A DNA stretch of 58,117 bases from a virus (taxonomy: Duplodnaviria; Caudoviricetes), in IMG/VR virus record IMGVR_UViG_3300027007_000030, positions 1 through 58,117 of that record. One strand, given 5' to 3'. The position numbers and the translations under genes were made by a program. Positions within the stretch are counted from its first letter, which is position 1. Each line of letters opens with the position of its first letter. Below, piece by piece: positions 5,892 through 31,483 of this stretch. The notes beneath the pieces were generated by a model. That model ran no database searches. It saw only the letters and a program-made list of their open reading frames with translations, and was not told where the DNA came from.

Positions 5892-6509
5892 ATGCTGACC
5901 TTCGACGAACAACAGCGCATCTACGACTCCGTGCCGACGTCCTATTCTGTGGGATGGGATGGGGCGACGTACACGTACAGCGATGTCCCCGTCTGGTGGG
6001 ATGGACAGGATCACGATATCGACCTCCCCGAGATCGTCCTTGCCTGGAACGCACAGGGAGTCGAGAAAGACGGACAGCAACCGATGAACCAGGTGCTCGA
6101 CTACGACCTCAAACCGAACGTCCCTGACGTAGACATCACGCGTGGGACTCGCGTGTACGACGAGATGCAGGTTACGTTCGCCGTCGAACACGACCAGAAC
6201 GCCGACGGGGTACCGGCCGAGGTACGCTCGAACGCCTTTGCCGGGGTGTTACTCGACCACTTCCGGTATGCGTTCGATCAGAACGATGATGGGCCGAACG
6301 ATGAGCGACCTGTCCTTGCTCGTGTGATTGGTGAGCCGACGGTCGTACCCGCTGAGATAGACGGGGACCGAGGGCTTCGGGCCGCGTTCCCGGTTCGATT
6401 CCACTACACGGACAGACACGTCGATACCGAACCCACGGTCGAAACCGTCGAGGGTGACGTCGACGTCGACGGCGACTCGAACACGAGCAACCCGTTTTCG
6501 ACCAGCTAA
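5892..6509 (+). CDS. Tail terminator/neck protein
   Basis: Position immediately before the tail sheath gene; size 205 aa. Confidence 0.55.
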   Translation: MLTFDEQQRIYDSVPTSYSVGWDGATYTYSDVPVWWDGQDHDIDLPEIVLAWNAQGVEKDGQQPMNQVLDYDLKPNVPDVDITRGTRVYDEMQVTFAVEHDQNADGVPAEVRSNAFAGVLLDHFRYAFDQNDDGPNDERPVLARVIGEPTVVPAEIDGDRGLRAAFPVRFHYTDRHVDTEPTVETVEGDVDVDGDSNTSNPFSTS

Positions 6510-6518
6510 CGGCGCCCG

Positions 6519-6576
6519 CCGGCGGGATTGCGTAGCCACAACCCCACCCTCTCGGGCCCGAAAACGGGTCTCCGAG
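6519..6576 (+). repeat. ~60-bp intergenic repeat family, copy A (degenerate)
   Basis: CCGGCG...CACAACCCCACCC...GAAAACGGGTCTCCGAG aligns with copies at 26436, 35458, 45335 and 56187. Confidence 0.45.
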
Positions 6577-6663
6577 ACCGTACGACCGCCGAGGATCGTT
6601 TACTAACGTATTTTGAGAGTTCCCACGTATAACCCCCATACGTCTACGGGGTAGAACATTAGC

Positions 6664-6678
6664 GAAAACTGGTATATA
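6664..6678 (+). promoter_or_regulatory. Putative late promoter GAAAACTGGTATATA upstream of the sheath gene
   Basis: Same motif at 9956 and 16131; variants at 5069, 8487, 25335, 26632 and 56312; usually 37-46 nt upstream of an ATG. Confidence 0.65.
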
Positions 6679-6709
6679 CGCCAGATTGTGTCTATTCTGA
6701 TGAAACGAT

Positions 6710-8071: not shown

Positions 8072-8086
8072 AGGAGGTGACATAAG

Positions 8087-8476
8087 ATGCCAAAATCAGA
8101 GTACGACGCCCGCGAAGTCTCGATCATGGTCAATGGGGTCGCAGTCGCAGACCTCGACTCGTTCGGATACGACCAGAGCAAAGCCCACGAGCTCGAACGC
8201 ACCCTCGACGAGGGGAGCGTTTGGGTGAAGGGAACCGGTGAGTTCACTGGGACAGTGGTCATGAAGGCCACGTCCGACAACATCCCGGACGTCGAAGACC
8301 TGTTCCAGAACGACGAGATCTTCGACATCACGATCCAGTACGCCAGCACGGAGCCACGCTCCCAGAGCGTGTTCACCCGAGTCATGCTACAGGACTGGGG
8401 CCCATCGGACTACGAGCTCGATGGACTCCCGACGTTCGAAGGGTCCTGGGAAGCCGACGAGGTCGCACACAGCTAA
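8087..8476 (+). CDS. Tail tube protein
   Basis: 129 aa after the sheath gene; YDAREVSIMVNG N-terminus; AGGAGGTGA SD. Confidence 0.8.
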   Translation: MPKSEYDAREVSIMVNGVAVADLDSFGYDQSKAHELERTLDEGSVWVKGTGEFTGTVVMKATSDNIPDVEDLFQNDEIFDITIQYASTEPRSQSVFTRVMLQDWGPSDYELDGLPTFEGSWEADEVAHS

Positions 8477-9483: not shown

Positions 9484-9936
9484 ATGGAAACACGTAGAAC
9501 GACTGGTATGAGCATCCCAGAAGACGAGGTATCGAGCTGGATCGGGACGCCCCGAGAAGACATCCCGGAGAGCATCACCCGGATGTTCGACGCGTTCGAC
9601 TCCCCCTGTCCAGAGTGTAACGCAGACATGGTCACGTTCGCCCCCTCGGACATCGACAGCGAGTGTGTCTGCTTCGCATGTGGCTCCGAGTTCCGAACGA
9701 AGGACGTTGACGACATGGTTGAAGTCGCCGGCCAGAAGGTACAGCAACACATCGAGAACCGGAAAGAGCGAAAGGAGCAGATGGAGGCCGGGGAGTACAA
9801 GCGTAAAGGGAACAAGAACCTCGCGAAGATGCTCACCGTCATCGGGTTCATGTTCTGTCTCACTATCATCGGGCTCCCAATCGGCGCGATCCTGATCTAC
9901 CTGGCGTCACGGATCGCACCAGACCCCGAGGACTGA
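9484..9936 (+). CDS. Zinc-ribbon membrane protein (moron-like)
   Basis: CPEC...CFAC ribbon and C-terminal hydrophobic hairpin; own promoter-like GAACACTTATTA ~35 nt upstream. Confidence 0.65.
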   Translation: METRRTTGMSIPEDEVSSWIGTPREDIPESITRMFDAFDSPCPECNADMVTFAPSDIDSECVCFACGSEFRTKDVDDMVEVAGQKVQQHIENRKERKEQMEAGEYKRKGNKNLAKMLTVIGFMFCLTIIGLPIGAILIYLASRIAPDPED

Positions 9937-9955
9937 GCTTTTCTAACCCTGTAGA

Positions 9956-9969
9956 AAAACTGGTATATA
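9956..9969 (+). promoter_or_regulatory. Putative late promoter upstream of the tape measure gene
   Basis: AAAACTGGTATATA, identical core to the copies at 6664 and 16131. Confidence 0.6.
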
Positions 9970-10078
9970 GGGCAAATCGTCTTCGTTTAGGTAGCCGGCG
10001 GTAGTGGTGCCGCCGACACTGGTCATGAGAGTATCCGCGTCAGTCCCTCCAGAGCGTCTGTTCGAGGTGTCCAAGTAG

Positions 10079-13072: not shown

Positions 13073-13615
13073 ATGTCCGTCTCTCCCATGTCGTTCGGGC
13101 CCGGCGGTGGCGGTGGCACGAGCCTCCGCGTTGGCCCGGTGATCCTCGAAAACGCAATCAAGGTCAACGAGTCTGGTGGCATCAACGCGCCGTCCAAGCG
13201 AACTGAGGAGGGGTTCGATTGGACCACAAAAGTCCACGCAGAGCGCCGTACGGCCGAGTTCGAGGCTTGGGCCGAACTGGACGACGTCACCTCGATCACG
13301 TCGCTTCGGGACTCAAGCGAACCCATCTCGGTTGCGTTCGACTTCGTGACGATGGGGAAGTGCAAGATAGACGACCTCAATATCGACCACGAGGCCGCAC
13401 ACCCCGAGCACGTCTACGTTCGCATCTCCGTCAGCGAGGTGTACACGCCGAGTACAGAGACGGCGATTCTTCGTGTATCGTCGTCCGATGGGTCGGTCCG
13501 GTCGTCAGGCCCCGAACTATCGGACCCCTCACTCGCCCGCCCGGAGGAGCGCAGAACGATCGGTGGGAGTGGGTCTGCGATCGACGACGTACTCGGCTGG
13601 CTGGGGTTCGACTGA
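13073..13615 (+). CDS. Baseplate tube-initiator-like protein
   Basis: Follows the tape measure gene; PSKRTEEGFDWTTKVH motif typical of myovirus post-TMP proteins. Confidence 0.6.
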   Translation: MSVSPMSFGPGGGGGTSLRVGPVILENAIKVNESGGINAPSKRTEEGFDWTTKVHAERRTAEFEAWAELDDVTSITSLRDSSEPISVAFDFVTMGKCKIDDLNIDHEAAHPEHVYVRISVSEVYTPSTETAILRVSSSDGSVRSSGPELSDPSLARPEERRTIGGSGSAIDDVLGWLGFD

Positions 13616-13617
13616 TC

Positions 13618-13944
13618 ATGACGTTAGAAGTCATCCCTATAGACCAGGAGAATGCGCGGCGGAAAGAGCCCATGCGTCTGGAAGTCTACGACATCGACCT
13701 GTTCCCCAACGAGCGGTTCGAAGTTACGTTCGACTGGAACGAGTTCATGGACCGGTGGATCGTGACGTTCACCCACCTCGGAACGGATACGAGATTCTTC
13801 AAGGGGCCGGCCGACCTGTATCAGGACTACGCCTACGACGACATCGTCGCGTTCATGTTCATCGACCCGGCGAGACAGGAGACGATGGTCACGCCGCGGA
13901 ACCTGGGCGACACGGTTTGGTTGACCATCCTCGAGGTAAGCTAA
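13618..13944 (+). CDS. Small baseplate protein
   Basis: ATG at 13618 (MTLEVIPI...FEVTFDWNEFMDRW...NLGDTVWL); synteny. Confidence 0.6.
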   Translation: MTLEVIPIDQENARRKEPMRLEVYDIDLFPNERFEVTFDWNEFMDRWIVTFTHLGTDTRFFKGPADLYQDYAYDDIVAFMFIDPARQETMVTPRNLGDTVWLTILEVS

Positions 13945-14801
13945 TGGTCTGGAAGCAATACCGACGGGTAGAAGCGGGGAACGTCTCGATCGAGGAGCTC
14001 GACATGGACATCACGATCGTCTACAGTAAGAGCTCGGGCCTCGAGTTCGACGTGATCATCTGGAACCTCGCCGACGACACATGGTCGCGTATCGAAGAAG
14101 GCGACCCATGTCGAATCACACTCGGGTGGGAAGACGGGCCCACGAAAACAGTCCTGTTCGGGACTATCGAGAAGATGCTCAAAACGCCCGACGAGAACGA
14201 CGTCTCGTTCCGGCTCAAAGGAAAAGACGAGACGGACCGAACGCTCCGCTTTGGCTTCTCGAAGACATACGTCGACAAAACGTTCTCCGATATCGCCCGA
14301 TCGATAGCGGGTGAAATCGGCCTCACTGTCGGCGAGGTCGAATCGACGAGCGCCGGCCCCGAGCGCGAGTTTACCGTCCAGAAGGACCGGCCAGCCCGAC
14401 ACTGGCTCAACCAGTTGATCGCGAAGACACAGGATAAGACCGACACCCCATGGGAGTGGTTCGTCGACGCCGGCAAGTTCTACTTCGTCAAGAAAGACGG
14501 TCGAAAAGAGGAGGCTGTCAGGCTGAGCTTCGAGAACACGTTGATCACGATCGGTGAGTCGGAAGGGGAGAAAGAAGCCGAGCAGTCCGGCCTCGACTTT
14601 ACTGCGCTGTGTGAACCACGCATCCGGAAAGGTGCCGCCGTTGCTGTCGAGACACCGGACTACACGGGCGCGTACAAGGTCACAGAGTACCGGTTCAACT
14701 CGAATACGATCTCGGGTGATCACGAAGTGACTGGTAAACTCGTCCCACTCGGAGCGAGCTACGAAATAGCGCCCGCCGGTGCCAGGGAGTTGCTCAACTA
14801 A
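13944..14801 (+). CDS. Baseplate hub protein
   Basis: ATG at 13944 overlapping the upstream TAA; IIWNLA...ITLGW...LFGTI...EWFVDAGKFYF...EPRIRKG pattern. Confidence 0.75.
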   Translation: MVWKQYRRVEAGNVSIEELDMDITIVYSKSSGLEFDVIIWNLADDTWSRIEEGDPCRITLGWEDGPTKTVLFGTIEKMLKTPDENDVSFRLKGKDETDRTLRFGFSKTYVDKTFSDIARSIAGEIGLTVGEVESTSAGPEREFTVQKDRPARHWLNQLIAKTQDKTDTPWEWFVDAGKFYFVKKDGRKEEAVRLSFENTLITIGESEGEKEAEQSGLDFTALCEPRIRKGAAVAVETPDYTGAYKVTEYRFNSNTISGDHEVTGKLVPLGASYEIAPAGARELLN

Positions 14802-15993: not shown

Positions 15994-16064
15994 AATAATA
16001 GATACTTTTACAGTCGTAGTAGTGTAATAGTATCAGACCGCGCACTGGATGCCACCAGAAACGT

Positions 16065-16101
16065 TGTACGTACATATGTGCACGCCCATATGTACGTGCA
16101 G
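16065..16101 (+). repeat. 37-bp imperfect palindrome (14-8-14), copy 1
   Basis: TGTACGTACATATG-TGCACGCC-CATATGTACGTGCA-G; identical copy at 50594, variant at 27105. Confidence 0.9.
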
Positions 16102-16130
16102 CCATTTTGGACCCTCGACAATACCTTTCC

Positions 16131-16145
16131 GAAAACTGGTATATA
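16131..16145 (+). promoter_or_regulatory. Putative late promoter upstream of the baseplate wedge operon
   Basis: GAAAACTGGTATATA 40 nt upstream of the ATG at 16171. Confidence 0.65.
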
Positions 16146-16170
16146 TTCGAGAAGGTGTTTGTACGAGTGA

Positions 16171-16545
16171 ATGGGAGAGTCCGGGTACGGCAAAACATGG
16201 GCCCTGCAAGCTAACGGTGACATCAAGCTCACCGAGCTGAACAGCCCCGAGTTCATCGAGGGGACACGTGCCGTCGTCCAGGACATGAAAGTGACCCTGG
16301 CGACGATTCGTGGAGAAGACCCGTTCGACGAGAACCACGGGCTGGACATGTTCACGGTCGCCGGTGGGTCTGACGAGGAGCTTCGCTTCGCAATCACGGA
16401 AGCACTTCTCGACGACTACTCGGATGTCATTCAGGAGATCAACGAGATCGAGATTAACGACCCCGATGAGAACAGAGAGCGAGACGTCTCGATAGACCTC
16501 ACGCTTGTCGATAACGAACGGTACACCTTCGGGGTAATCGTATGA
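16171..16545 (+). CDS. Baseplate wedge/sheath initiator (gp25-like)
   Basis: L..NGDI...Q.....L.T.RGE.PFD..HGLD motif; precedes the baseplate J gene. Confidence 0.7.
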   Translation: MGESGYGKTWALQANGDIKLTELNSPEFIEGTRAVVQDMKVTLATIRGEDPFDENHGLDMFTVAGGSDEELRFAITEALLDDYSDVIQEINEIEINDPDENRERDVSIDLTLVDNERYTFGVIV

Positions 16546-17828
16546 GCTTCGGCGTCCAGAGTGACGGGTCGTTCAACCGAAAGCACGTCGACGACATCGT
16601 CGAAGACCTCGAAACGAAACTCAAGCAAGAGGCCGGGAACGACATCGACCTCCGCCAGGGTTCGCCGCTCAAGCAGGTCATCGACATGGTGGCCATCGAG
16701 CTTGCCGAGCAGTGGGAGGCGCAGGAAGACAACTACTACGCCTCATACTACGAGGATGCGTTTGGGATTCAACTCGACCGCCTCCTCGCAATCGCTGGCA
16801 TCAGTCGTATCCCACGGAGAGGGGCAACTGGCGAGGTGACGTTCTCGACAGACAGTGTGAACGGCAACGACGTTTCGATCCCTGCGGGGACGCAGGTGAC
16901 GACCGAATTGACCGATACGAAGCCTGCGATACCGTTCGAGACAACCGAGAGTGCGACCCTTCTGGCCGGTGATACAGACGTGACCGGTGTCGAGATCGCG
17001 GCGCTGGAGCCCCACGAGACAAGTGTCGACGAGGAGTGGCTGGGAGAGGAGACGAACGTCGCGGCTGATACGGTCAAAGTTATCTCGAATCCCATCTCGG
17101 GCGTCGACTCCGTGACGAACCCCAACCCTACTGGAGACGTCAACCAGAACTACGTGGAGGGGCGTGACGAGGAAACAGACGCCGAGCTCAAGCTCCGATA
17201 CGAGAACGTTCTCTCGAAGTCCGGGTCTGCAACGCTGGATGCTATCCACTCGCAGATCTACAACGCCCACGAAGACATCACGAGCGTGAAGATGGAGGAG
17301 AACGTCGATCTGGTCGACAACACCGGGTCGGGCGGTCTCCCACCGAAATCGTTCCGCGCAACCGTCCACTACACGGGGAGCCACGATGACGATATTGCCC
17401 AGGCGATTCTTGACTCCCGACCGGCCGGCATCCAGTCGTACGGTTCTCAATCGGCCACGGCCGAAACAGACGATGGGGCCGAGTACACGGAATACTGGGA
17501 CAACTCGACAGAGACAGACGTGTACGTCGATGTTACGGTGACGACGACAGAGACATTCCCCGGTAACGGGAGCGAGCTCGTCGAAGACGAGATCATCAAG
17601 TACATCGGCGGGACCGACAACAACGGGACTGAATATCCCGGCACAGACATCGGCGACGACATCATCTACGACCAGGTGTTCGCCGCGGCCATGCGCGTCG
17701 AGGGCGTCCAGGAAGCCGACTTGACCATCGGCACCTCCGATAACCCCAGCGGGACAGCGAACATCTCGATTGGGACGGCTGAGGTTGCACACACAGATAC
17801 GGGCAAGATCGACGTCACGACGAACTGA
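16542..17828 (+). CDS. Baseplate J-like wedge protein
   Basis: AFGIQLDRL...GISR..RRGATG.V.F; GVDSVTNP...GRDEETDAELKLR. Confidence 0.9.
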   Translation: MSFGVQSDGSFNRKHVDDIVEDLETKLKQEAGNDIDLRQGSPLKQVIDMVAIELAEQWEAQEDNYYASYYEDAFGIQLDRLLAIAGISRIPRRGATGEVTFSTDSVNGNDVSIPAGTQVTTELTDTKPAIPFETTESATLLAGDTDVTGVEIAALEPHETSVDEEWLGEETNVAADTVKVISNPISGVDSVTNPNPTGDVNQNYVEGRDEETDAELKLRYENVLSKSGSATLDAIHSQIYNAHEDITSVKMEENVDLVDNTGSGGLPPKSFRATVHYTGSHDDDIAQAILDSRPAGIQSYGSQSATAETDDGAEYTEYWDNSTETDVYVDVTVTTTETFPGNGSELVEDEIIKYIGGTDNNGTEYPGTDIGDDIIYDQVFAAAMRVEGVQEADLTIGTSDNPSGTANISIGTAEVAHTDTGKIDVTTN

Positions 17829-17839
17829 GGTGAATAGAA

Positions 17840-18469
17840 ATGGCACACGGAGGCTCGACTGAGACGCCCGAAGAACGGCTCGAGGAGAACCTCAAATCGC
17901 CGTACCCACACCACGACGGAACGAACTGGTCGTCGCTCATCAACACGTTCGCGACAGAGTTCACCGCCTTAGAGACGACACGTGACACAGTTCTCGACTC
18001 GGTAGTCGTCGATAGAGCCACGGGTGCTCAACTCGACCGTCTCGGTGAAGTTGTTCAACTTCCTCGCCAGACGAACGAGACGGACCCCCACTACCGGGGC
18101 CGGCTCAAAGTCCAGCTCAAGAAGTACATCGGAGGTGCCACCATAGACGAGATCAAGGAGACGGCGGCGATCTTGCTCGATACGAATGCGAGTGAGATCG
18201 CTATCGAGGAGGATTTCGCGACCGAGGCGGCGCGGTTCACGATCCAGATATCCGACAACGCCCTCGACGAGGCCGAGGTGACAGCCAACGACTTCAGGAC
18301 GTTCGTCGACGAGGTTCGTGGGGCTGGAATCAAGGCGCTGGCCGAGGAGAGAGGAACCTTTACATATCGGTCAGCACAAGATTACAGTAACGGGACAAAT
18401 GACCCGACGAAAGGGTACTACGACTCGACAGACGGCGTCGAGAACGGCACGTACTCGGGTCTACTGTAA
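17840..18469 (+). CDS. Baseplate wedge protein (gpI-like)
   Basis: DRATGAQLDRLGEVV..PR...ETD..YR.RLK motif, after the baseplate J gene. Confidence 0.75.
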   Translation: MAHGGSTETPEERLEENLKSPYPHHDGTNWSSLINTFATEFTALETTRDTVLDSVVVDRATGAQLDRLGEVVQLPRQTNETDPHYRGRLKVQLKKYIGGATIDEIKETAAILLDTNASEIAIEEDFATEAARFTIQISDNALDEAEVTANDFRTFVDEVRGAGIKALAEERGTFTYRSAQDYSNGTNDPTKGYYDSTDGVENGTYSGLL

Positions 18470-18477
18470 CCGAGTAA

Positions 18478-19032
18478 ATGACAATGTCCGAAAACAACAG
18501 AGAAGTAGACGTTGACCTGACCGGCGACGAGGAGCCGGACGCTGCTGGTGGCATCGAGTTGGTCGAGGCTGATGACCTCGCTGACCCCGAGTTCGACGCC
18601 GTCGCTGAGGGGAAAGAGGAGGCCAAGCGCGTTCTCAACGCGGTCGGTGGAGATAGCGAGTACGACCGTGCAACGAGCGCGCTTGTGCAGAAACAGCAGA
18701 GCGTCGAGTCGATGTCCCAGCAGTACGAGACGGCGATTCGTAACATCTCGTCGATGGAGCAGCGAGTAGACGGGCTGGACCTCACGATCAGCCGACTTGA
18801 GGATGTCGACGATGAGACGACCGTCTTCCAGCAACTGGAGGGTGGCGTGATCATCGAGGTCGTCGACGACGACACCGAGGGCGTCAAAGAGAGTCTGGAG
18901 ACCGCACGCGAACAGCTAACCGAACAGATAGAAGACCTGCGCGGACAGTCCGAGGCGCTCGAACGCGGGGTGCAGAAGAACCACGCCGCGATCCAGTACC
19001 TCGAGATGTACCGCGACATGAACGAAGAATAG
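18478..19032 (+). CDS. Prefoldin beta-subunit-like protein
   Basis: Coiled coil, then LEDVDDETTVFQQLEGGVIIE hairpin, then coiled coil, as in archaeal prefoldin beta. Confidence 0.65.
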   Translation: MTMSENNREVDVDLTGDEEPDAAGGIELVEADDLADPEFDAVAEGKEEAKRVLNAVGGDSEYDRATSALVQKQQSVESMSQQYETAIRNISSMEQRVDGLDLTISRLEDVDDETTVFQQLEGGVIIEVVDDDTEGVKESLETAREQLTEQIEDLRGQSEALERGVQKNHAAIQYLEMYRDMNEE

Positions 19033-19058
19033 CTCGCTAACAACGACCCACTCCAAAC

Positions 19059-20012
19059 ATGGCCGACGCAATTACACTGCAATCCTGGACCTGGACCGAT
19101 TCCGGCACCGAGCCCACGCAAGGTGACGAGAGCTACGCGGCCGGCGAACAGCCGATCGCGGAATACGACAACTGGGCGATGTGGGCGGTGACGACCGACG
19201 TCGACGCCCTGAACGCCGAGCTCGGTGAACACGTCGATAACCACGAGGCCGGCGGCCAGGACGAGATCAACTTGGACGGCCTGAACATCGGCTCAGCCGG
19301 TCAACTCGCCGAAGCTGCTGGCGATGTCGCTATTGAGACGACGGGTGGGACGACCGTTGTAGGGGTCGACACGAGTGCCGCCGACTGGACGACCTTCCCC
19401 GACATCAACGACGCGTTCACTCTCAAGCAGGACATGATACTCGGTGGCGGTCGGACAATCCAGATGAGCGCAGACTCGGGAGAACAGACGCTCGTAGACA
19501 TGTCTGTGACATCCTCGCCGGTAAATGGGTCCGAACAGTCGTACCTGATGGCTCTCGATGGGTCGTCGTACCTGAAAGCCTACGCTGAAGCCGACGGGTC
19601 TGGTGGCATCACGAATACACGGCTCGAATCCCACGTCGACCTACTGGTCGCGACCGGGAACGACCTCACACTCGGCGCTGACCTGGTCGCAGACGACGGC
19701 GAAGTCATCTGGGACGAATCGGCCGGCCACCTCGATCAGGACAGGCTGGAGAACGACAGTCTCACGATCAACGGCGGGAACGCGATCTCTGCGGGTGCGG
19801 TATCACTCGGCGGGTCGGTGACGGTCGGCGTCGAATCCAACTCGATCCAGACAGACGAGCTCGACCTCAGCATCTCGCCGACGTGGACCGGGATGCACAC
19901 GTTCAACGGCGGGGTCACGATGGGCGGCACGCTCGACCTGAACGGGAACGCCCTGGAAGGGACGGACGGCGTCGTCCTCCCGGTTGGGACAGACAAGTAC
20001 GTCACCCAGTAA
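19059..20012 (+). CDS. Tail fibre protein
   Basis: N-terminal W.DSGTEP....Y..GEQP.AEYDNW baseplate-anchor-like motif; Gly/Asp/Thr-rich; PTWTG.HTF segment; position after the baseplate genes. Confidence 0.7.
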   Translation: MADAITLQSWTWTDSGTEPTQGDESYAAGEQPIAEYDNWAMWAVTTDVDALNAELGEHVDNHEAGGQDEINLDGLNIGSAGQLAEAAGDVAIETTGGTTVVGVDTSAADWTTFPDINDAFTLKQDMILGGGRTIQMSADSGEQTLVDMSVTSSPVNGSEQSYLMALDGSSYLKAYAEADGSGGITNTRLESHVDLLVATGNDLTLGADLVADDGEVIWDESAGHLDQDRLENDSLTINGGNAISAGAVSLGGSVTVGVESNSIQTDELDLSISPTWTGMHTFNGGVTMGGTLDLNGNALEGTDGVVLPVGTDKYVTQ

Positions 20013-20013
20013 A

Positions 20014-21276
20014 ATGTCGGCACAGCCAGGCTCTGTATGGGTCGAAGGCGACGCGCTCCACTTCATCGACGGGGGTGGTACCGAGTGGCGCTACACGGGA
20101 GCACTGGAAGGGACGCCATCGGGAGCAGTGCCTGGATCGATCTGGATCGAGTCGACAGACAACCGGATTCACTACATCGATTCATCTGGAGAGGAACGAT
20201 CGACACCCCGGACTGTGGGTGGGTCGGTCGCTGGTGTCAACGGGTCTATCTGGATAGAGAACTCACTGATCAAGTACGTCGACTCAGGGTCGTTCAAGTC
20301 GACCGCACACGACGACGTCGCCCACAGTAACGTCGCACACAATGACAAGTCCTATTCGGACAAGTCCCACTCCGACGACAGTCACAACGACGTCGCCCAC
20401 AGCAATGTCGATCATGGCGACAAATCCTATTCGGATAAGTCCCACTCTGATGACACGCACGACGATATAGCCCACAATAACGCACACACTGACGTTGCTC
20501 ACGGTGATACTGCGCATAGCGACGATACCCACTCTGACGATGCGCATACGGACGACGCGCACGATAACTCACATTCAGACGATAGTCACAACGACAAGTC
20601 GCACGACGACGACGGGCACGACGACGTGTCACACGACAACTCACACTCGGACGATAATCACAATAACTCACACTCAGACGACAGCCACGACGATAGTGAA
20701 CACGACGACGTTTCCGGTAGCACCCCTCACGAGGATAAAGCACACGACGACCTCTCCCACGGCGATCACCAGGACAGTATATTCGCACCACCGGACGACC
20801 ACCACGATTGGTCGCACGAAGACGATGCTCACAACGACGCCCCGTCGTTCAGCGACCACGGAGACATAGCACACGACGATAAATCTCACAGCAACAATCA
20901 CTCGGATAAATCCCACAGCAACAACCACGATAACTGGGCACACCTGAACAAAGTACACGACGACGATTCGCACAACGACAAGAGCCACGGGAACTCGCAC
21001 TCGGATAACCCGTATTCGGACAAATCGCACGACGACAAAGCCCACGACGATACCGCTCACTCAGACGCGAACCACGACAATTCGCACACAGACGGAGCTC
21101 ACTCAGACAAGGCGCACTCCGACGATGCCCACTCTGACGATAGCCACGAAGACGGAAACCATAGTGACACGGCGCACACGGACAAGGCGCACTCTGACGA
21201 TTCGCACTCCGACGATAGCCATCAGGACGGGAGCCACAGTGACACACAGCACACAGATCAACCACAACAGGTATAA
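20014..21276 (+). CDS. His-x-Asp/Asn repeat protein; putative distal fibre/adhesin and radical SAM substrate
   Basis: ATG 1 nt after the fibre-gene stop; three GS(V/I)W(V/I)E..I/L..(I/V)D repeats, then ~64 (H/Y/F)-x-(D/N) units. Confidence 0.8.
   Translation: MSAQPGSVWVEGDALHFIDGGGTEWRYTGALEGTPSGAVPGSIWIESTDNRIHYIDSSGEERSTPRTVGGSVAGVNGSIWIENSLIKYVDSGSFKSTAHDDVAHSNVAHNDKSYSDKSHSDDSHNDVAHSNVDHGDKSYSDKSHSDDTHDDIAHNNAHTDVAHGDTAHSDDTHSDDAHTDDAHDNSHSDDSHNDKSHDDDGHDDVSHDNSHSDDNHNNSHSDDSHDDSEHDDVSGSTPHEDKAHDDLSHGDHQDSIFAPPDDHHDWSHEDDAHNDAPSFSDHGDIAHDDKSHSNNHSDKSHSNNHDNWAHLNKVHDDDSHNDKSHGNSHSDNPYSDKSHDDKAHDDTAHSDANHDNSHTDGAHSDKAHSDDAHSDDSHEDGNHSDTAHTDKAHSDDSHSDDSHQDGSHSDTQHTDQPQQV
20308..21258 (+). 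repeat. Coding degenerate tandem repeat (mostly 15-nt units encoding H-x-D/N-x-x)
   Basis: Direct reading of the translation: HSDDS, HNDKS, HSDKA, HDNS and similar units. Confidence 0.9.
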
Positions 21277-21315
21277 TATCTGAGAACATCGTAATAGGTA
21301 GAGAGCGGAGTAGTC

Positions 21316-22809
21316 ATGACTATACACGTATCAAAAGACACAGGTTGTAACCTGGGGTGCAGCTACTGCTACGAGGAGCCAGATCGCGAGATCAACGAGA
21401 ACGACGTGTCCTCACAGTCACTTGACACTGACGCTGCGATTGCACAGCTCGACGAGTGGAAAGAGCAGTACCCGACAGATGTCCCTGGGCTCCATGGAGG
21501 GGAGCCGCTCCTGATAGACACTGACGACCTGGAAGTCGTGTTCAAGTGGGTCTACGACAACTACGAGTCGGTGAGAGATGGGACACAAGCGTCACACATA
21601 CAGACCAACGGGACGTTGATTAAGGAGCGTCATATCGACCTGTTCAAGCAGTACAACGTTTCTGTCGGCATTTCGTGTGACGGGCCTGTCGAGCTCAACA
21701 GGGAGCGGCTCGCCCGCCCGGAGAAGGATGAGGCCGAAGACGGCTTTACGACCACAGACAGCCTGTCGCAGATCACGAACGACAATATCACTCGGCTGGC
21801 AAACCAGGGGGTCAGCGTCGGGATCATCGTCGTCATTCACGAGACGAACGCTGGGACGGACGAGCGGTTAGAGATCCTCCTCGACTGGATGGACGATCTT
21901 GCGAAACAGGGCGTGAGCGGGCACTACAACCCCGCCCTTCCGTACGACGAGATCCAGACCGAGAACTCGCTATCAGGAGAGCGCCTGAAAGAAGTGTACC
22001 TCCGCACCTACGAGTGGATGAAAGAGGAGCAGTATCGCGAGTGGAACCCGATGAGCGACGCTCGCGACAACTTGCTTGGGAACAAACTCACCAACTGTGT
22101 CAACAACCGCTGTGACGTCTTCAATGCCGGAGCGGCAAAGATCGTCACGGGTGAGGGAGAGACGACTGGCTGTGGCAAAACATGGGGGTCTGTCGGCGAC
22201 GGTGTTCCGTTCCTCCAGGGCCCCTCGAACGAAAGTGAGTACGACGATAACGAGGAGCGGTACGAGATGTTGCAGCAAGTGCCGGGTCCGTACACGGAGG
22301 GTGAGCCGGACCTGGGTGGGTGTAAGGGCTGCAAATACTGGAACGTCTGTCAGGGCGGTTGTCCATCGGGTGCGATCGACCAGGACTTCCGCAACCGGAC
22401 GCGCTGGTGCCCCGCGAAGTACGCGATGTACGAGGCCATCGAGAACGACATGCGGACGCTGTTCCCGAACATCACGCTGATCACCGACTACCCATGGAAC
22501 GCTGAGCTCGCGAAGTACGCCAGCAAATGGGGACTGGACATCAAGCCGTTCGCAGCGATGGACCCCGGAGAAGATGGTCCATCCTCCGTCTGGGGTGGTT
22601 ATTCCCACCCGTGGGGCGGCCCACTGGACCGCGTTCCAGAGGATGTCTTCCCAGATGACTGGCGTGGTGAGAAGGAGTTCATCAAATCGATGTACGACGA
22701 GGAAGTGCTCGAGATCGACGAACACACGCACAACTGGCACGCCGACTCCGATATGGGGGACCAAAACGACGATGGATGGAAGCAGGTCGACGAGGAGACG
22801 GAAGCATGA
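21316..22809 (+). CDS. Radical SAM/SPASM-domain protein (peptide/protein maturase type)
   Basis: CNLGCSYC (CxxxCxxC), HGGEPLL, IQTNGTL, GISCDGP; SPASM cysteines CVNNRC...GC...CKGCKYWNVCQGGCP...WC. Confidence 0.92.
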   Translation: MTIHVSKDTGCNLGCSYCYEEPDREINENDVSSQSLDTDAAIAQLDEWKEQYPTDVPGLHGGEPLLIDTDDLEVVFKWVYDNYESVRDGTQASHIQTNGTLIKERHIDLFKQYNVSVGISCDGPVELNRERLARPEKDEAEDGFTTTDSLSQITNDNITRLANQGVSVGIIVVIHETNAGTDERLEILLDWMDDLAKQGVSGHYNPALPYDEIQTENSLSGERLKEVYLRTYEWMKEEQYREWNPMSDARDNLLGNKLTNCVNNRCDVFNAGAAKIVTGEGETTGCGKTWGSVGDGVPFLQGPSNESEYDDNEERYEMLQQVPGPYTEGEPDLGGCKGCKYWNVCQGGCPSGAIDQDFRNRTRWCPAKYAMYEAIENDMRTLFPNITLITDYPWNAELAKYASKWGLDIKPFAAMDPGEDGPSSVWGGYSHPWGGPLDRVPEDVFPDDWRGEKEFIKSMYDEEVLEIDEHTHNWHADSDMGDQNDDGWKQVDEETEA

Positions 22810-23747
22810 CTGTCACGCCAACGTATGTCGAGGATGCCCCGGAGAACCGTGTCGAACTTGACCCGTTCGCGCGGTTCAACTGGAAGACAGTCGAGAGCAA
22901 AGAGATGTGGAAAGACGCGCTCATCAATGCTGAGATAGCAAAGTCAGAGGCCGAGTGGCGATCGGTTCTGAGCGATAAGACCGACCGGAAGGCGGCGATC
23001 ATCCACATAAACAACTTCAACCGCGAAAAGTGGCTCCGGCGGATGGGTGAGTATGGTCTCGCCTACCGGGACATCCGATACTCGGAGCCGTATGAGGGGT
23101 TCGCACACAAGTTCCACCCGACGACGATAGACGACCCGCGGCGGAACACCTACGCGGTGATCGCGAAGGACGATGATGTCGCGGATAAGATGGAGGAAGC
23201 GGAGTTGGAGATGGAAGGGCACGAACGACATGGGACGGTGGGTAAACTCCTGGGGTTCCCTGACTGTTGCCGTTCACAGTTCAACGACATCTGGGTGGAT
23301 AACTGGGACCGAGGGCTCACGGACCCCATGTACGAGGTTGCGTGTAACACGCCCTCGGCCCGGGAGATAACTGACGCAGACAACATTCGACTCGAGGACC
23401 CCGAGGCGTACACGAACGTCATGTGGCGCTACTTCGGGTGGTCGTTCATCACGCACATCCCGTGCAGTTTCGAGTGTGAGGAGTCAGCCGCCATCGGCGA
23501 GGCGCGCCACGAGATCATGCACGAGGCTGGGTACGGCGGGGCCGCCGACATGCTCTACGGCTGGTTGGACCAGCCCTTCGTCTGGGACGCGCTCCATTCC
23601 ATCGCGAACATCCGAAACATGCACGTGACGGCCACTGCGGGAACGTCATCGTACTGGTCGAAGAAACGGGTCGAATGGCGTCGTGAGCACTTCCCGCAGA
23701 TGAAGCCGTTCTACACAGAGGAAGACCTCGCCCGAATACACTCATGA
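22806..23747 (+). CDS. Cys-rich radical SAM partner (DUF483-like)
   Basis: ATGA overlap with the rSAM stop; GKLLGFPDCC and THIPCSFECEES motifs. Confidence 0.6.
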   Translation: MTVTPTYVEDAPENRVELDPFARFNWKTVESKEMWKDALINAEIAKSEAEWRSVLSDKTDRKAAIIHINNFNREKWLRRMGEYGLAYRDIRYSEPYEGFAHKFHPTTIDDPRRNTYAVIAKDDDVADKMEEAELEMEGHERHGTVGKLLGFPDCCRSQFNDIWVDNWDRGLTDPMYEVACNTPSAREITDADNIRLEDPEAYTNVMWRYFGWSFITHIPCSFECEESAAIGEARHEIMHEAGYGGAADMLYGWLDQPFVWDALHSIANIRNMHVTATAGTSSYWSKKRVEWRREHFPQMKPFYTEEDLARIHS

Positions 23748-24154
23748 TCGACCACCTACGACCGATCGACCCCATCGAGACGGCCCTCCCTGACGACTGT
23801 ATCGACCCGACCACATCGATGCCACCAGAAACGGTTGAGCCGCCGCGTGAGACGATACTCGTCGATGACAACGTCTCTGTCGAGGTCAGGGTCAAACACG
23901 ACTACAACTGGATGCACGTCGATGTGCCCCGGTTTGAGGGGTGTGATAGCCGCGAGGCGATCTGGACGACTGTCTGGTTTGCCCGAGCAATCGGTGTCCC
24001 AGGAACGTGGAAAGAACAGTTGCGAATCGTCGTCGATGACAACGAACTGGAAGCGTACCGTCTGGGTGCGTTGTATCGATATGCGGAGTTCCCACTGCGT
24101 GAACGCGAGACGAACTACGCCGAGTACGGTGAGAACCCAGAGTACGACACATGA
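23744..24154 (+). CDS. Hypothetical protein
   Basis: ATGA-coupled, acidic ORF. Confidence 0.55.
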   Translation: MIDHLRPIDPIETALPDDCIDPTTSMPPETVEPPRETILVDDNVSVEVRVKHDYNWMHVDVPRFEGCDSREAIWTTVWFARAIGVPGTWKEQLRIVVDDNELEAYRLGALYRYAEFPLRERETNYAEYGENPEYDT

Positions 24155-24660
24155 CACACACACGGAACATACTGGACGCCCTGAACAACGCCGACATAGA
24201 TGAACAGCTCGTCGATCGGGTACGGGAAGCAACCATCGATGACTCAGCGTACGACGAGTTGGAATGGTACTACGATGAGATTCAGTACGACGACCTACTC
24301 CAGGTCAGCGACGGATACGTCGTCCACGCCCGCGGGTTCACGGTTGAAGACCAGGTCGTCGTCGACCAGTACGCACTGAACGGGGGACATAAGCGATGGT
24401 GGCAACAGAAACTTGTCGACGAGTTCGACCGCGACTGGAGAGATGACGATCCAAATCAGGTCCTGTACTGGTCGGTTACCGGGAGTGGGACGTTCACGAT
24501 ACAGTACCCTGGGCTCGCAATTGCGTCCGTCGAAAGTATCGGTCGCATCAAGCAGACGTGGGAAGCGATGGAAGTCCCGGATGATATGCAAATCGGTTGG
24601 CTTCTGGAGATCGATAGAGAGGCGACTTGGAGAGGATCGCTCGACGAACTACATGAGTAA
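24151..24660 (+). CDS. Hypothetical protein
   Basis: ATGA-coupled, acidic ORF. Confidence 0.6.
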   Translation: MTHTRNILDALNNADIDEQLVDRVREATIDDSAYDELEWYYDEIQYDDLLQVSDGYVVHARGFTVEDQVVVDQYALNGGHKRWWQQKLVDEFDRDWRDDDPNQVLYWSVTGSGTFTIQYPGLAIASVESIGRIKQTWEAMEVPDDMQIGWLLEIDREATWRGSLDELHE

Positions 24661-25330
24661 GGTTCAGGTCAGCGGCGTCATGACCCTCCGGAACGCGGAG
24701 GAGGTAGGGTATCCATATATTCCATCGATCCTGTCGATCCTCCCGATCGTAGACGAGTTTCTCATCAACGATGGTGGGAGTGACGACGGGACGTGGGAAA
24801 CACTCTGCACACTGGCTGACTCGTTCGACGAGATCGAGCTCTACCAGATCCCAGATGGTGAGCCAGGCGCGCAGTGGGATGTGGTAGACAGACAACTCGA
24901 CGAGCTGATCGACGTTGCTGGAGGAGAGTGGTTGATCGAATCGCAGTGTGACGAGGTGTGGCCGCGGTCGAGTCTGCATACAGTGAACGAGATCATGCGT
25001 TCCGACACCGAGTATGCGTCTATCAGACAGCCCCGACTGAGCAGTAGCGAGTGGGATGGCGTGTCGAGCTATGACTACTGGACAGTTCGTTGCGTCAAGA
25101 ATACTCCTGACCTCGAGAGCCACGAGGGTGGCGACTCGTTCCACACAGGAGGGTATTCGAGCCCGACTGAGGGATACACCAGCCACAACGTACCACCAGA
25201 AACGAAGGTGGATGCCCCGTTTTGGCACGTCCACGACTTCGACCGGGTCGCTCACGCGGAACGCCATGCGTTCTGGTTAGCGACAGAAAGCGACCTTCGC
25301 CGAGAGGTGTATGAGCGCACGGTCGAGTGA
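24653..25330 (+). CDS. Glycosyltransferase, GT-A fold (GT2-like)
   Basis: ATG at 24653; VSGVMTLRNAEEVGYP...VDEFLINDGGSDDGT...GEWLIESQCDE. Confidence 0.8.
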   Translation: MSKVQVSGVMTLRNAEEVGYPYIPSILSILPIVDEFLINDGGSDDGTWETLCTLADSFDEIELYQIPDGEPGAQWDVVDRQLDELIDVAGGEWLIESQCDEVWPRSSLHTVNEIMRSDTEYASIRQPRLSSSEWDGVSSYDYWTVRCVKNTPDLESHEGGDSFHTGGYSSPTEGYTSHNVPPETKVDAPFWHVHDFDRVAHAERHAFWLATESDLRREVYERTVE

Positions 25331-25372
25331 ACGGGAAAACTCGTATGAAGTGATTATTGTGTACATGAGGTA

Positions 25373-25807
25373 ATGAACGGTGAGTTCGAGCCGTCGACGA
25401 GACGGAGAGACACCTCCTGGGTGCAGGGGGAGTTGGCAACCGCGTTCGAGAACTTCCCGACTGGCGGCCTCCAGCGTCTCTCGCTGGACTCGCGCTACTA
25501 CCTGACGACACCGGAGGACTTCGATCACATCGTAGCGGAAGATGCGCTCTCACACCGATACTACCGACGGGGGAAGTTCGACTGTGAAAACTTCGCGTTT
25601 GCGTTCAAGAGCATCTGTGACGGTCGATATGGACTGAACAGTGTTGGTGTTCTTCTCGACTACCGGACTCGTGACACCTACAACGTGGTCGTCTACGAGG
25701 AGGGTGGCGTCGACGTGTTCGACCCGGACGCCAGCGAGCTCATCGTTGCTGGTGGCATCGGCATGGAGTCGGCATACAAGATCGACCTCGGTGTGATCAT
25801 TTTATGA
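25373..25807 (+). CDS. Papain/transglutaminase-like (agglutinin C-terminal-like) protein
   Basis: FDCENFAFAF...GLNSVG...TYNVVV...FDP pattern. Confidence 0.5.
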   Translation: MNGEFEPSTRRRDTSWVQGELATAFENFPTGGLQRLSLDSRYYLTTPEDFDHIVAEDALSHRYYRRGKFDCENFAFAFKSICDGRYGLNSVGVLLDYRTRDTYNVVVYEEGGVDVFDPDASELIVAGGIGMESAYKIDLGVIIL

Positions 25808-29275: not shown

Positions 29276-29377
29276 GATGGAGACGCCGCGATCACTCATA
29301 GGGTGGCGTATCCCTCTCGCTGGCTCGCTCACGGTCGATCAACAGATGCGGTTCGGAGAATCAACGGAGTGTCAAGA

Positions 29378-31483
29378 ATGACAAAGATCGACCTATTCAC
29401 CGACTACGTCGAATATCTCCAGTCAAAGGAGATAGCGTACGCGGAGACGTACATCCCGTACTACCTGTGTAGTGTGGGGTGTCACATGCTGAACATCAGG
29501 CAACAGAGCCTCAAACGGAGCGGTGAGCGCGGCATCTATGCCGAGCTCGGGTCGTACCCGAACCTCCGCCTGAACACCATGATGGTCGCGCCACCCGGCT
29601 TCTGTATGTCCCCGTCGACGAAGATCAAGACGGCGGACGGCGTCAAGAAGGCGGCTGACGTCGAGGTGGGAGAACGACTCCTCTCGGCGAACGGCGAGGA
29701 GAACGTGCTCACGAACAAGTGGAGCACGCGAAACAACATCCTCGTGTTCCGACCACTCGACCTGCGGGTGAGCCCGGAGCACAAGGTGAAGACCACCACC
29801 GGCTGGCTTCCAGCCGGTGAGATCGATGTAGGCGAAAAGATCGAGGCACAGTACACGAGAGAAGACATCGAACTACTTGCCTGGTGGCTCACCGAGGGCC
29901 GCTGGGAGAACAAGTACGACGACAGCCGTAACTCCGGACTCGTCATCTCGAACGGTGACGACGAGGAGGTAGAGCGACTCCGTGAAATCGCCGACCACTT
30001 CGGTTGCACGATGACCGAGATGGGCAAGCGAGAGTACCGGTTCGCGATGAAACCCGACCGCGAGAAGAACAGCGCGAGCGAACTACTCCGCGAGTTCGGT
30101 CTGGGCAACGTAGAGGGAGCACTCGACAAGTTCCTACCCGAACGGGTCTTCGACATGGAACCCGAGGCGAGGCGGCTCCTGTTCAAGACGATGGTCGACG
30201 GCGACGGTTGGGTTATCGACAGCGGTGATGTCTGGTACTCCACGTCGTCGCCGGACCTCGTCGAAGGACTCGGGCGGTTACTCGACGGCTTCGGGGTAGA
30301 GTACAGCGTGTACGAGCACGAGGTTGACGACTACCCCGTCAACTACCGACTCCGGGTCAAGAGTGAATACCGAGAGTGGTTCCACGAACCGGTCACGAAG
30401 GACCAGTTCAGTGCGACCGTCACCGTAGACGCCATCGAGGCGAAGAAGGGCAAGTTCCATACGATCGACTTCGAGACGACGCAGAGTCACTTCATCGCGA
30501 ACAACGCGGTGATCCACAACAGCAAGACGTTCTTCATGGAACTGATGCTGGACCCGGACATCGGCATCATCGGCGGGACGACGATCCCGACGAAGATGGT
30601 CCAGAACATGACCGAGGCGGCGTTCGTCGGCTCCGACGGTGGGGGCGACGACGACGACTACGACATGGGCCTCGCCGAGAAGTACAAGGAGGGTATTCTC
30701 GGCTGTGAGGAGTTCGACTCCCTGGCGAAGGTCATGCAGACCGACCACTCGGGGAACCTCGACAACATGCTCCTGACGGCACTCGACTCCGGTCGCGTCC
30801 GGAAAGACATGGCCCACGCGAACATCAACTACGACACCGACGTGACGCTGTTCGCGGCCACACAGCCAATGCGGATGGACCTGACGTCCGGGTTCGCCCG
30901 GCGGTTCATCTTCATGAAGTTCTACCCGTCGCCTGAGCAGATCACCGAGATGCGCCAGTCTCGACGGCGTGGACGGGGTCGAGATGCTGACTTCGATCAG
31001 CTCCAGAAGTTCAAGAACGAGCTCGGGATGAAGTTCGACTCGAAGGTTGTCAACATCGACCAGGTCCGTGGCCTCGAAAAGCTCGACAAGATCTTCGACG
31101 ACGTGCGAGTGCCGCACTTCGAGGAGAAGGTCTACGAGCGGATGGCGATGGGCTATTCCGTTCTCAAGGAGGGGTCGGTCGAGCAGGACGCGGACACGAC
31201 CTACCTGGAGATACAGCCGACACGCGAGCTACGGCACCTGCTCCGACAGTCGATGGAGTGGCGGGAGTCCCTCATGCAGGGCGTCGAGGGCGACCAGGTG
31301 ATCTCGGTCCTGCGCAACACGGAGGAGAAGTCGATGCCCAAGGACGAGCTACAATCGTTCCTCCAGATGTACTCGATGTCCGGTCCGCAGGTGAACAAAA
31401 TAATCCACGACATGCGCCGCAATCGGATGATCGACACGGAGGTAGACGACAACCAGACAACACACGTCCTCCTGAAGGAATAG
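29378..31483 (+). CDS. MCM-like AAA+ helicase with an intein
   Basis: Spliced Walker A APPGF/SKT, TEAAFVGS, GILGCEEFD (Walker B), LFAATQP, ARRF (Arg finger), C-terminal wHTH-like region. Confidence 0.8.
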   Translation: MTKIDLFTDYVEYLQSKEIAYAETYIPYYLCSVGCHMLNIRQQSLKRSGERGIYAELGSYPNLRLNTMMVAPPGFCMSPSTKIKTADGVKKAADVEVGERLLSANGEENVLTNKWSTRNNILVFRPLDLRVSPEHKVKTTTGWLPAGEIDVGEKIEAQYTREDIELLAWWLTEGRWENKYDDSRNSGLVISNGDDEEVERLREIADHFGCTMTEMGKREYRFAMKPDREKNSASELLREFGLGNVEGALDKFLPERVFDMEPEARRLLFKTMVDGDGWVIDSGDVWYSTSSPDLVEGLGRLLDGFGVEYSVYEHEVDDYPVNYRLRVKSEYREWFHEPVTKDQFSATVTVDAIEAKKGKFHTIDFETTQSHFIANNAVIHNSKTFFMELMLDPDIGIIGGTTIPTKMVQNMTEAAFVGSDGGGDDDDYDMGLAEKYKEGILGCEEFDSLAKVMQTDHSGNLDNMLLTALDSGRVRKDMAHANINYDTDVTLFAATQPMRMDLTSGFARRFIFMKFYPSPEQITEMRQSRRRGRGRDADFDQLQKFKNELGMKFDSKVVNIDQVRGLEKLDKIFDDVRVPHFEEKVYERMAMGYSVLKEGSVEQDADTTYLEIQPTRELRHLLRQSMEWRESLMQGVEGDQVISVLRNTEEKSMPKDELQSFLQMYSMSGPQVNKIIHDMRRNRMIDTEVDDNQTTHVLLKE
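29603..30520 (+). mobile_element. Intein (306 aa) with LAGLIDADG-type homing endonuclease
   Basis: Starts CMSPSTKIKTADG, block B VSPEHKV, LAWWLTEG and TMVDGDG motifs, ends HFIANNAVIHN followed by Ser. Confidence 0.92.

Follow-up and report, generated by a model that had tools for sequence, protein, structure and literature searches.

Why would a tailed virus carry a gene for a radical S-adenosylmethionine (rSAM) enzyme directly after a gene for a protein made up largely of one three-residue repeat? This question is raised by the IMG/VR virus record IMGVR_UViG_3300027007_000030, all 58,117 nucleotides (nt) of which were analyzed and are referred to here as the window. The structural gene block of the window ends with three genes, whose products are a repeat protein, an rSAM/SPASM enzyme, and a DUF483-like protein (Table 1). 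A first-pass annotation made from the sequence had proposed that the enzyme crosslinks the repeat protein in the manner of RiPPs (peptides that are made on ribosomes and modified after translation). Our comparisons of related loci show that the three genes are kept together as a module in viruses of archaea and of bacteria, and suggest that the enzyme is likely to modify the repeat protein.

As the best overall explanation, which we judge to be about evenly poised between right and wrong, we propose triceptide-type stapling of a virion repeat protein. The three genes would constitute a protein-maturation module at the end of the tail and baseplate genes of a myovirus-like haloarchaeal virus or provirus. 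The 420-amino acid (aa) protein would consist of a small ordered beta domain leading into a 320-aa flexible loop of 64 aromatic-x-(Asp/Asn) units, closed by a P-x-x-V end. The rSAM/SPASM enzyme would take this loop as its substrate, abstract a hydrogen at the C-beta of the Asp or Asn in position 3, and join that carbon to the ring of the His, Tyr, or Phe in position 1; each resulting three-residue, triceptide-like cyclophane would lower the mass by 2 Da, and many could form per molecule. The four-Cys DUF483-like protein might act as an adaptor or recognition subunit, or carry an additional metal or Fe-S site. Stapling would yield a stiff appendage that tolerates proteases and heat and is displayed on the virion, beside a ligand-binding beta domain.

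Association of the repeat gene with the rSAM gene

Relatives of the rSAM enzyme were gathered from viral contigs, species genomes, metagenomes, 401 Halobacteria-class genomes (three of which have the gene), and plasmids. Loci whose enzyme shares at least 29% identity with that of the window were taken as the family, giving 27 loci and 26 distinct genes, as L006 and L007, which encode identical DUF483-like proteins, were counted once. An aromatic-x-(D/N) repeat gene lies directly beside the rSAM/DUF483 pair in 17 of the 26 distinct relatives, just 5′ of the rSAM gene in 16 and just after the DUF483 gene in the remaining one (L090). Conversely, a repeat open reading frame (ORF), defined as at least seven units in 40 aa, was found in none of 31 control loci with a distant rSAM/SPASM enzyme (21–26% identity). 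The co-occurrence that the first-pass annotation had suggested looking for was observed. Five loci on truncated contigs (L092, L093, L094, L096, and L097) are too short near the rSAM gene to judge, so that the repeat gene is adjacent in 17 of 21 evaluable distinct loci, two more of which have a variant. In one variant, Thermus phage phiLo (L003, 4968–6416), nine H-x-[DN] units are located on the C-terminal tail of the rSAM enzyme itself, and a 474-aa H-x-D protein (phiLo_137) is also encoded 4.7 kb from the rSAM gene. In the other, a Bacteroidota metagenome-assembled genome (L014, 3415–8762), an 850-aa protein encoded 5′ of the rSAM gene ends in seven H-x-K units; the rSAM gene of this locus is followed by a gene for a 252-aa protein with an HExxH string and no Pfam match, and then by the DUF483 homologue. 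A DUF483-like gene was present within about 2.2 kb of the rSAM gene in all 22 distinct loci with testable flanks, suggesting that its product is an obligate partner of the enzyme.

Among isolated phages, a tblastn search with the rSAM enzyme returned only the Thermus phages phiMa, Cumys, and phiLo. Cumys and phiMa, which share 96% average nucleotide identity according to the available part of a preprint (bioRxiv 10.1101/2024.08.14.607894), have the gene order baseplate genes, tail collar fibre, small ORF, 343-aa protein, rSAM, and DUF483. Their 343-aa protein has three N-terminal “GSxWvEGxxLxYlD” hairpins, then 53–54 H-x-[DN] units repeating about every 4 residues, and “QPVRG” at its end. Compared with their counterparts in the window, the rSAM enzyme is about 30% identical, the DUF483 protein 27%, and the N-terminal domain of the repeat protein (N-domain) 41%. 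Baseplate_J and gp48-like genes precede the module in the window and in L005, L012, and L013; in Cumys, annotated baseplate genes do so.

In its available part, the preprint (bioRxiv 10.1101/2024.08.14.607894) describes an “rSAM module” of Cumys and phiMa made up of rSAM, DUF483, and an unknown protein, notes similar loci in prophages, and proposes DNA modification as its function. It also reports cyanobacterial rSAM and DUF483 homologues beside deazapurine DNA-modification genes, and fusions of DUF483 to methyltransferases. The repeat protein might accordingly be an unmodified, His/Asp-rich metal-binding or pH-sensing appendage, with the rSAM and DUF483-like proteins acting on viral DNA or a small molecule, a possibility that we consider very unlikely. 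In its favor, both His and Asp are well-known ligands of metals, methyltransferase fusions also occur in Atlas clusters of viral DUF483 proteins, and the rSAM/DUF483 pair is kept with no repeat ORF within at least 3.5 kb of it at two loci, L095 and L179, the latter on a Halorussus aquaticus plasmid on which no hairpin domain was found either. However, an enzyme acting on DNA or a small molecule would not account for the adjacency of the repeat gene in 17 of 21 evaluable loci plus two variants as against none of the controls, nor for the H-x-D units on the enzyme's own tail, and metal ligation cannot account for the Tyr-only and Phe-based variants described below. Moreover, peptides or proteins are the substrates of the named rSAM families closest to the enzyme.

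The orphan loci were placed in a quick rSAM tree, which was assessed by Shimodaira–Hasegawa-like approximate likelihood ratio test support only and from which L007, L094, and L096 were left out. The 24 family rows were separated from three outgroup rows with a support of 96, and a haloarchaeal group was split from a group containing the Thermus phages, L014, and other contigs. L095 and L179 formed a tight pair (support 99) within the His-type group; since they are nested among His-type viral modules, the orphan loci look derived. Both loci (L095, 3477–5681; L179, 7001–9206) have a cellular or plasmid context, adjoining GNAT and ribosomal-protein-like genes, and their DUF483 proteins are 62.5% identical to each other.

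The repeat unit and its carrier protein

The repeat protein matched no Pfam, NCBIfam (E ≤ 0.01), or PHROG family, and the N-termini of homologues agree better with a start at the ATG at 20014 than at a TTG at 19984. The first-pass annotation had counted about 64 (H/Y/F)-x-(D/N) units in the last 320 or so residues by hand, and residues 99–420 (322 aa) indeed hold 64, of which 60 begin with His, three with Tyr (all YSD), and one with Phe (FSD). Asp or Asn stands at +2 of 60 of the 61 His residues in this region (48 D and 12 N), the exception being H264 within “HHDW”. Successive units are spaced by five residues in 50 cases, by four in eight, by three in two, and by six, nine, and 11 in one case each; three aromatic residues (F257, W266, and W308) fall outside the units, and the whole protein contains no Cys. 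In 10,000 composition-preserving shuffles of the repeat region, 20.8 ± 3.4 H-x-[DN] units were obtained (maximum 33), compared with the 60 observed. At the DNA level, Tandem Repeats Finder detected only patchy periods of 15, 30, and 75 nt with 66–92% match, all six Ser codons are used at position 2, and position 3 is encoded by GAC (39), GAT (13), AAC (10), and AAT (2). Because the DNA periods are patchy and synonymous variation is free, the repeat is not a recent slippage array, and selection on the protein maintains the motif.

To what extent is His itself required? A profile of the N-domain (alignment A3) matched 599 cluster representatives at E ≤ 1e-3, and we inspected 151 proteins, namely 150 listed of the 599 and P0210: 68 had a His-rich tail (at least five H-x-[DN] within 40 aa), 18 were no longer than 125 aa, and 65 were of other kinds, including proteins with tails dominated by Trp, Tyr, or Phe (e.g. 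P0216, P0223, P0232, P0303, and P0349). In 89 family tails picked by hairpin pattern and composition filters, Asp or Asn stands at +2 of His in 88% of 1202 cases against a background of 19.5%, and at +2 of Tyr, Phe, and Trp in 38%, 39%, and 32%, respectively, against 14–28% at other offsets. Phe-x-(N/D) units are present in P0353, from which H-x-[DN] is absent, and L090 has F-S-D and F-K-D units. In the rSAM tree, this Phe-type locus was sister to the His-type L091 (support 98), suggesting that the position-1 type switches between close relatives. Genome G055 (L177, G055:C1:1589000-1608000) has two tandem four-gene cassettes (about 3522–8162 and 9626–14236), each comprising a gene whose product is Cys-rich and about 580 aa long, a repeat gene, and its own rSAM and DUF483 genes; the first repeat protein has 24 Y-x-D units and no His, whereas the second has 20 H-x-[DN] units. 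The two cassettes may encode alternative appendages of one provirus. Together, these comparisons indicate that the conserved unit is aromatic-x-(D/N) and not His as such, in agreement with the first-pass annotation. As both position 1 and the spacing vary (five residues here, about four in the Thermus phages), it is the local three-residue unit that is conserved, rather than a solenoid period or a set of metal ligands. Phe can neither ligate metals nor form N- or O-links, and its occurrence at position 1 is the strongest argument for chemistry at the aromatic ring.

We then examined the predicted structure of the repeat protein. The AlphaFold model, computed for the monomer from a 49-sequence alignment, has an all-beta domain at residues 1–100 with a predicted local distance difference test (pLDDT) score of 94–98, whereas residues from about 105 to 410 have a pLDDT of about 40–48 and no secondary structure. 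The last ten residues again reach a pLDDT of 85, with a short strand at 418–419; P417 is conserved in at least 90% of the 49 aligned relatives, and similar ends occur in relatives. From this model we infer that the P-x-x-V C-terminus packs back onto the N-domain, so that the repeat part would be a closed loop. Since the repeat part is predicted to be disordered, it would be accessible to an enzyme. Prediction of a complex of the rSAM enzyme, the DUF483-like protein, and residues 1–135 of the repeat protein gave a score of 0.00, which is uninformative either way.

The three-hairpin N-domain appears from its distribution to be a reusable module. It is joined to Cys-rich tails in P0208, P0212, P0213, P0217, P0224, P0271, and P0289, and the hairpin domain is found at the C-terminus of other proteins that carry CBM96, H_lectin, Laminin_G_3, PEGA, Big_5, or CARDB/dockerin domains. 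In view of these partners, it looks like a surface or ligand-binding module. Structure searches with the N-domain yielded leads only: the best match of a wide VIA-align search was the lectin-like bacteriocin LLPA (Z 3.7, root-mean-square deviation [rmsd] 4.7, 95 aligned residues), with curculin at Z 2.4, and Foldseek against the PDB returned choline-binding and CROP hairpin repeats at E of about 0.05; a lectin-like or cell-wall-binding-repeat-like fold is thus no more than a lead. A search of BFVD gave one real match, the 342-aa A0A451ED92 (35% identity), which is presumably the phiMa homologue.

The enzyme, its partner, and the chemistry they may perform

The window enzyme scored 48.5 bits against Pfam Radical_SAM (gathering score 29.5). 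Its CX3CX2C motif lies at residues 11–18, indicating an rSAM enzyme without an N-terminal extension, and the seven-Cys SPASM set is complete (C266-x14-G-x4-C286; C336-x2-C339-x5-C345-x3-C349; C364), both as first annotated. An H-x-D unit occurs at the aligned position of the C-terminal tail in nine of the 12 sequences of alignment A1 and may be a pseudo-substrate or a self-modification site. A subclade consisting of P0106, P0113, and L012 (6001–7416) lacks three second auxiliary-cluster Cys residues (C336, C345, and C364 in the numbering of the window) and keeps the others; decay of the L012 gene was rejected as the cause, as the other two proteins have the same pattern. Seven of 120 listed rSAM homologues (P0009, P0037, P0042, P0050, P0076, P0081, and P0114; 781–821 aa) match intein or homing-endonuclease families (PF14890, PF14528, and PF07591), and P0022 (823 aa) is similarly long with no such match. 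Inteins in the rSAM gene suggest that it matters to the viruses that carry it.

Which reaction could such an enzyme perform? By sequence, its best solved relative is ChlB, a triceptide synthase, and its second best is the anaerobic sulfatase-maturating enzyme (anSME), both over about the first 130 residues only. Across nine members (the window enzyme and eight relatives), the four top NCBIfam matches include AmcB, YhhB, and the sulfatase maturase in all nine and DynA in seven, with scores of 45–102 bits against cut-offs of 349–450. The clade is thus best described as a separate family that appears to lie near enzymes abstracting a C-beta hydrogen of a peptide or protein. Within it, a crosslink from ring to C-beta is, by analogy, the most economical option, and we put its chances near the midpoint.

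Several results weigh against this crosslink or against a virion appendage made by it. Among the cyclophane families in NCBIfam (AmcB, YhhB, XyeB, GrrM/OscB, and FxsB), the window enzyme reached at best 86.2 bits against a cut-off of 425, the others scoring 48–84 bits against 310–450; the cut-offs of the cyclophane synthases were likewise unreached by the eight relatives. The matches of the window enzyme mostly cover the generic N-terminal half, and with scores below every cut-off, the family label does not predict the chemistry. The likeness to cyclophane maturases noted in the first-pass annotation holds insofar as AmcB, DynA, and YhhB are among the best matches, all of them far from their cut-offs. 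The anaerobic sulfatase maturase scores on par with the cyclophane synthases (74.5 bits for the window enzyme, cut-off 349.45) and is the top match for four of the nine members (phiLo, L014, L006, and L099). None of the His-type triceptide motifs given in the available part of PMC11499958 (HTK, HAA, and HNR) has Asp at position 3. The first-pass annotation had pictured the repeat part as a fibre, whereas AlphaFold predicts it as disordered; and it is gene position that suggests a virion location. The orphan loci, the plasmid with no hairpin domain, and the deazapurine context described above add to these points.

The same enzyme and substrate could also be linked by another chemistry: a His-N to C-beta or ether link of the DynA or DarE type, epimerization, or a sulfatase-maturase-like two-electron C-beta oxidation of Asp or Asn. 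The C–C cyclophane synthases score no higher than DynA and the sulfatase maturase, the latter maturase leads in four members, and, no family cut-off being reached, the product cannot be read from homology. Even so, we regard this alternative as rather unlikely, since Phe, which lacks a heteroatom for N- or O-links, replaces His and Tyr at position 1 in L090 and P0353, and a reaction confined to position 3 would leave the aromatic requirement at position 1 unexplained.

The DUF483-like protein of the window scored 20.5 bits against Pfam DUF483 (PF04467; gathering score 25), compared with 25.4 for the L099 homologue and 18–24 for other homologues. Its family has at least 85 close relatives with invariant C154, C155, C220, and C224 (CC, then PCSxxC); the L014 homologue lacks these four Cys residues. 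Atlas neighbours of the family are mostly viral, and PF04467 is found on 16–43% of their members. The first-pass annotation had coupled this gene to the rSAM gene and placed its start at 22776. That ATG overlaps the rSAM stop by 34 nt, and the ATG at 22806, where homologues start instead, overlaps it by 4 nt; either start fits translational coupling. The AlphaFold model has a pLDDT of 89, and Foldseek found no PDB match at E ≤ 1e-3. Wide VIA-align matches were too weak to assign a fold or function, the best being 2guk_B, whose function is unknown (residues 41–168 with 107 aligned; Z 6.1, rmsd 3.4), and the cysteine methyltransferase NleE reaching Z 4.4. A role as an adaptor is weakly suggested, as fusions to rSAM or methyltransferase domains would fit it; the L099 gene is extended by a weak methyltransferase-like region. 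On one metagenome contig (L097, 166–2012), two tandem DUF483-like paralogues lie 5′ of the rSAM gene.

A broader proposal, which we put forward only tentatively, is that tailed viruses of archaea and bacteria use rSAM stapling to turn a disordered tail-tip loop into dozens of cyclophanes, with DUF483 as an adaptor for rSAM enzymes or methyltransferases and interchangeable His, Tyr, and Phe cassettes diversifying the appendage. If stapling is correct, cyclophane-forming rSAM chemistry would be extended beyond small secreted peptides to proteins that are large and have up to 64 sites, offering a natural template for heavily crosslinked protein materials. A cousin of RiPP crosslinking that is encoded by a virus and works at the scale of proteins would be a first, and virus particles from hot and hypersaline habitats and beyond would gain a new kind of post-translational modification. 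DUF483, a domain that occurs widely in viruses and has no assigned function, would receive one. The system is directly testable, since Cumys and phiMa are in culture and their host, Thermus thermophilus HB8, is genetically tractable; such a test would correct or confirm the published DNA-modification proposal.

Genomic setting and comparison with known systems

Is the repeat protein part of the virion? The window, a record classified as a provirus with a completeness of about 55%, encodes acidic proteins and has a GC content of about 0.6. Pfam matches 5′ of the repeat gene outline a myovirus-type tail block with Phage_tail_S, a sheath-like DUF3383 protein, a 997-aa tape-measure protein, and a gp25-like sheath initiator in addition to the genes in Table 1. 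The gene directly upstream had been annotated as a tail fibre gene. Its position after the Baseplate_J and Mu gp48-like genes, the sole basis for this putative assignment, stands, while its product has no Pfam family; a 68%-identical segment is present in L013. From gene position, we consider a virion location of the repeat protein to be an evenly balanced proposition. Alternatively, the modified protein might be made during infection and, instead of entering the virion, act inside or outside the host cell, where it could chelate metal, serve as a released adhesin or decoy, or help to assemble the fibre. Consistent with this, we found no isolated virus with proteomics that would place it in virions, AlphaFold predicts disorder for the repeat part, the hairpin domain also occurs in apparent cellular surface proteins with dockerin, PEGA, or CARDB domains, and cellular orphan rSAM/DUF483 pairs exist. 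Such a role is nevertheless quite unlikely, as the gene lies consistently at the distal end of baseplate and fibre blocks in unrelated viruses and its ATG follows the stop of the preceding structural gene by 1 nt; nor did an export signal come to light, although no search aimed at one was made.

Table 1. Positions of the module, its sequence elements, and upstream tail genes in the window
Feature	Position	Strand	Basis or remark
Baseplate_J gene	16542-17828		Upstream tail block; Pfam
Mu gp48-like gene	17840-18469		Upstream tail block; Pfam
Prefoldin-like coiled coil gene	18478-19032		Upstream tail block; Pfam
Putative tail fibre gene, 317 aa	19059..20012	+	Context; directly 5′ of repeat gene
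Repeat protein, 420 aa, proposed substrate	20014..21276	+	ORF, motif counts
N-terminal beta domain, three “GSxWvEGxxLHYvD..G.ER” hairpin motifs, aa 1–100	20014..20313	+	Alignment A3, AlphaFold
Repeat region, 64 (H/Y/F)-x-(D/N) units, from aa 99	20308..21258	+	Motif count, AlphaFold
Conserved C-terminal end “QPQQV” (family pattern P-x-x-V)	21259..21273	+	Alignment, AlphaFold
Radical SAM/SPASM enzyme, 497 aa, proposed maturase	21316..22809	+	Pfam, NCBIfam, alignment
CX3CX2C radical SAM cluster motif, aa 11–18	21346..21369	+	C11, C15, C18 invariant in alignment A1
SPASM auxiliary-cluster Cys region, aa 261–364	22096..22407	+	C261, C266, C286, C339, C349 invariant in A1
Single H-A-D unit in the rSAM C-terminal tail (“WHADSD”)	22738..22746	+	Alignment A1
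DUF483-like protein, 313 aa (alternative ATG 22776, 323 aa)	22806..23747	+	Homologue starts, Pfam, alignment

A megablast search of positions 16000–25000 against the phage collection gave no matches. Downstream of the DUF483-like gene, a run of overlapping small genes (23744–25807) includes a weak Fringe-like match under the cut-off (24151–24660) and a Lectin_C_term domain (25373–25807); the coupled genes at 23744–25330 were excluded from the module, as they were not kept with it in the 24 loci compared. Replication genes further 3′ encode a LAGLIDADG-domain protein, an AEP primase, and PadR. The first of these, a 726-aa protein (29303–31483) with LAGLIDADG_3 at residues 290–363, opens the replication block and may be an intein-containing replication protein.

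How does the proposed system compare with known ones? The first-pass annotation had drawn an analogy to His-Xaa-Ser (Hxs) systems, which share a His-x-x repeat protein encoded beside rSAM genes. This analogy was not upheld: the repeat region has no H-x-S, there is one rSAM gene and not an HxsB/HxsC pair, and HxsB is not among the best 25 NCBIfam families of the window enzyme and appears for four relatives with scores of 35–51 bits (cut-off 370). The tip of the phage T4 long tail fibre (gp37) is an iron-stitched H-x-H needle with an ordered trimeric beta structure. It is likewise a His-based short repeat in a phage tail appendage, but the protein described here has no H-x-H, variable spacing, predicted disorder (in a monomer model), and relatives built on Phe or Tyr only.

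Among enzymes, anSME is also an rSAM/SPASM protein that modifies a whole protein by C-beta hydrogen abstraction, and its score is comparable. Its target motif contains Cys or Ser and is absent here; its cut-off was unreached, and the window substrate is free of Cys. DynA makes three-residue rings, one of them from a His. It is among the three best NCBIfam matches of the window enzyme at 83.9 bits, which is far under its cut-off of 450, and its substrate is a short peptide with a single ring pair.

A close chemical parallel is with the triceptide systems (HtkB, HaaB, YhhB, and ChlB), which share aromatic-x-x substrate units, an rSAM/SPASM enzyme without an N-terminal recognition domain, and the occurrence of His, Tyr, Phe, and Trp at position 1. 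According to the available part of PMC11499958, characterized triceptide synthases join C2 of His to C-beta on HTK, HAA, and HNR, and HtkB also accepts Phe or Trp in place of His; the H-x-K units of L014 are of the motif type that HtkB crosslinks. Unlike the short leader-core peptides of these systems, the substrates here are proteins of 190–470 aa that include a folded domain and carry as many as 64 units. Position 3 is Asp or Asn throughout, a DUF483-like protein appears to be an obligate partner, and the genes lie in a virus tail module. As the first-pass annotation had stated, no protease or exporter family was found among the neighbouring genes scanned. Its term “RiPP-like” therefore fits in its logic and not in its parts, there being no short leader-core peptide, protease, or exporter.

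We found no description of a viral repeat substrate of this kind in a literature search that covered titles and the starts of abstracts, with most subscription journals outside its coverage. A close precedent is the Thermus-phage rSAM module, which has three homologous genes in the same order after baseplate genes, and differs from the window in its repeat period of about 4 instead of 5 and in its bacterial host. The available text of the preprint describing it (bioRxiv 10.1101/2024.08.14.607894) contains neither the word “histidine” nor “RiPP”. As a set of linked genes the module is thus partly anticipated, whereas its proposed role as a protein-crosslinking system is not.

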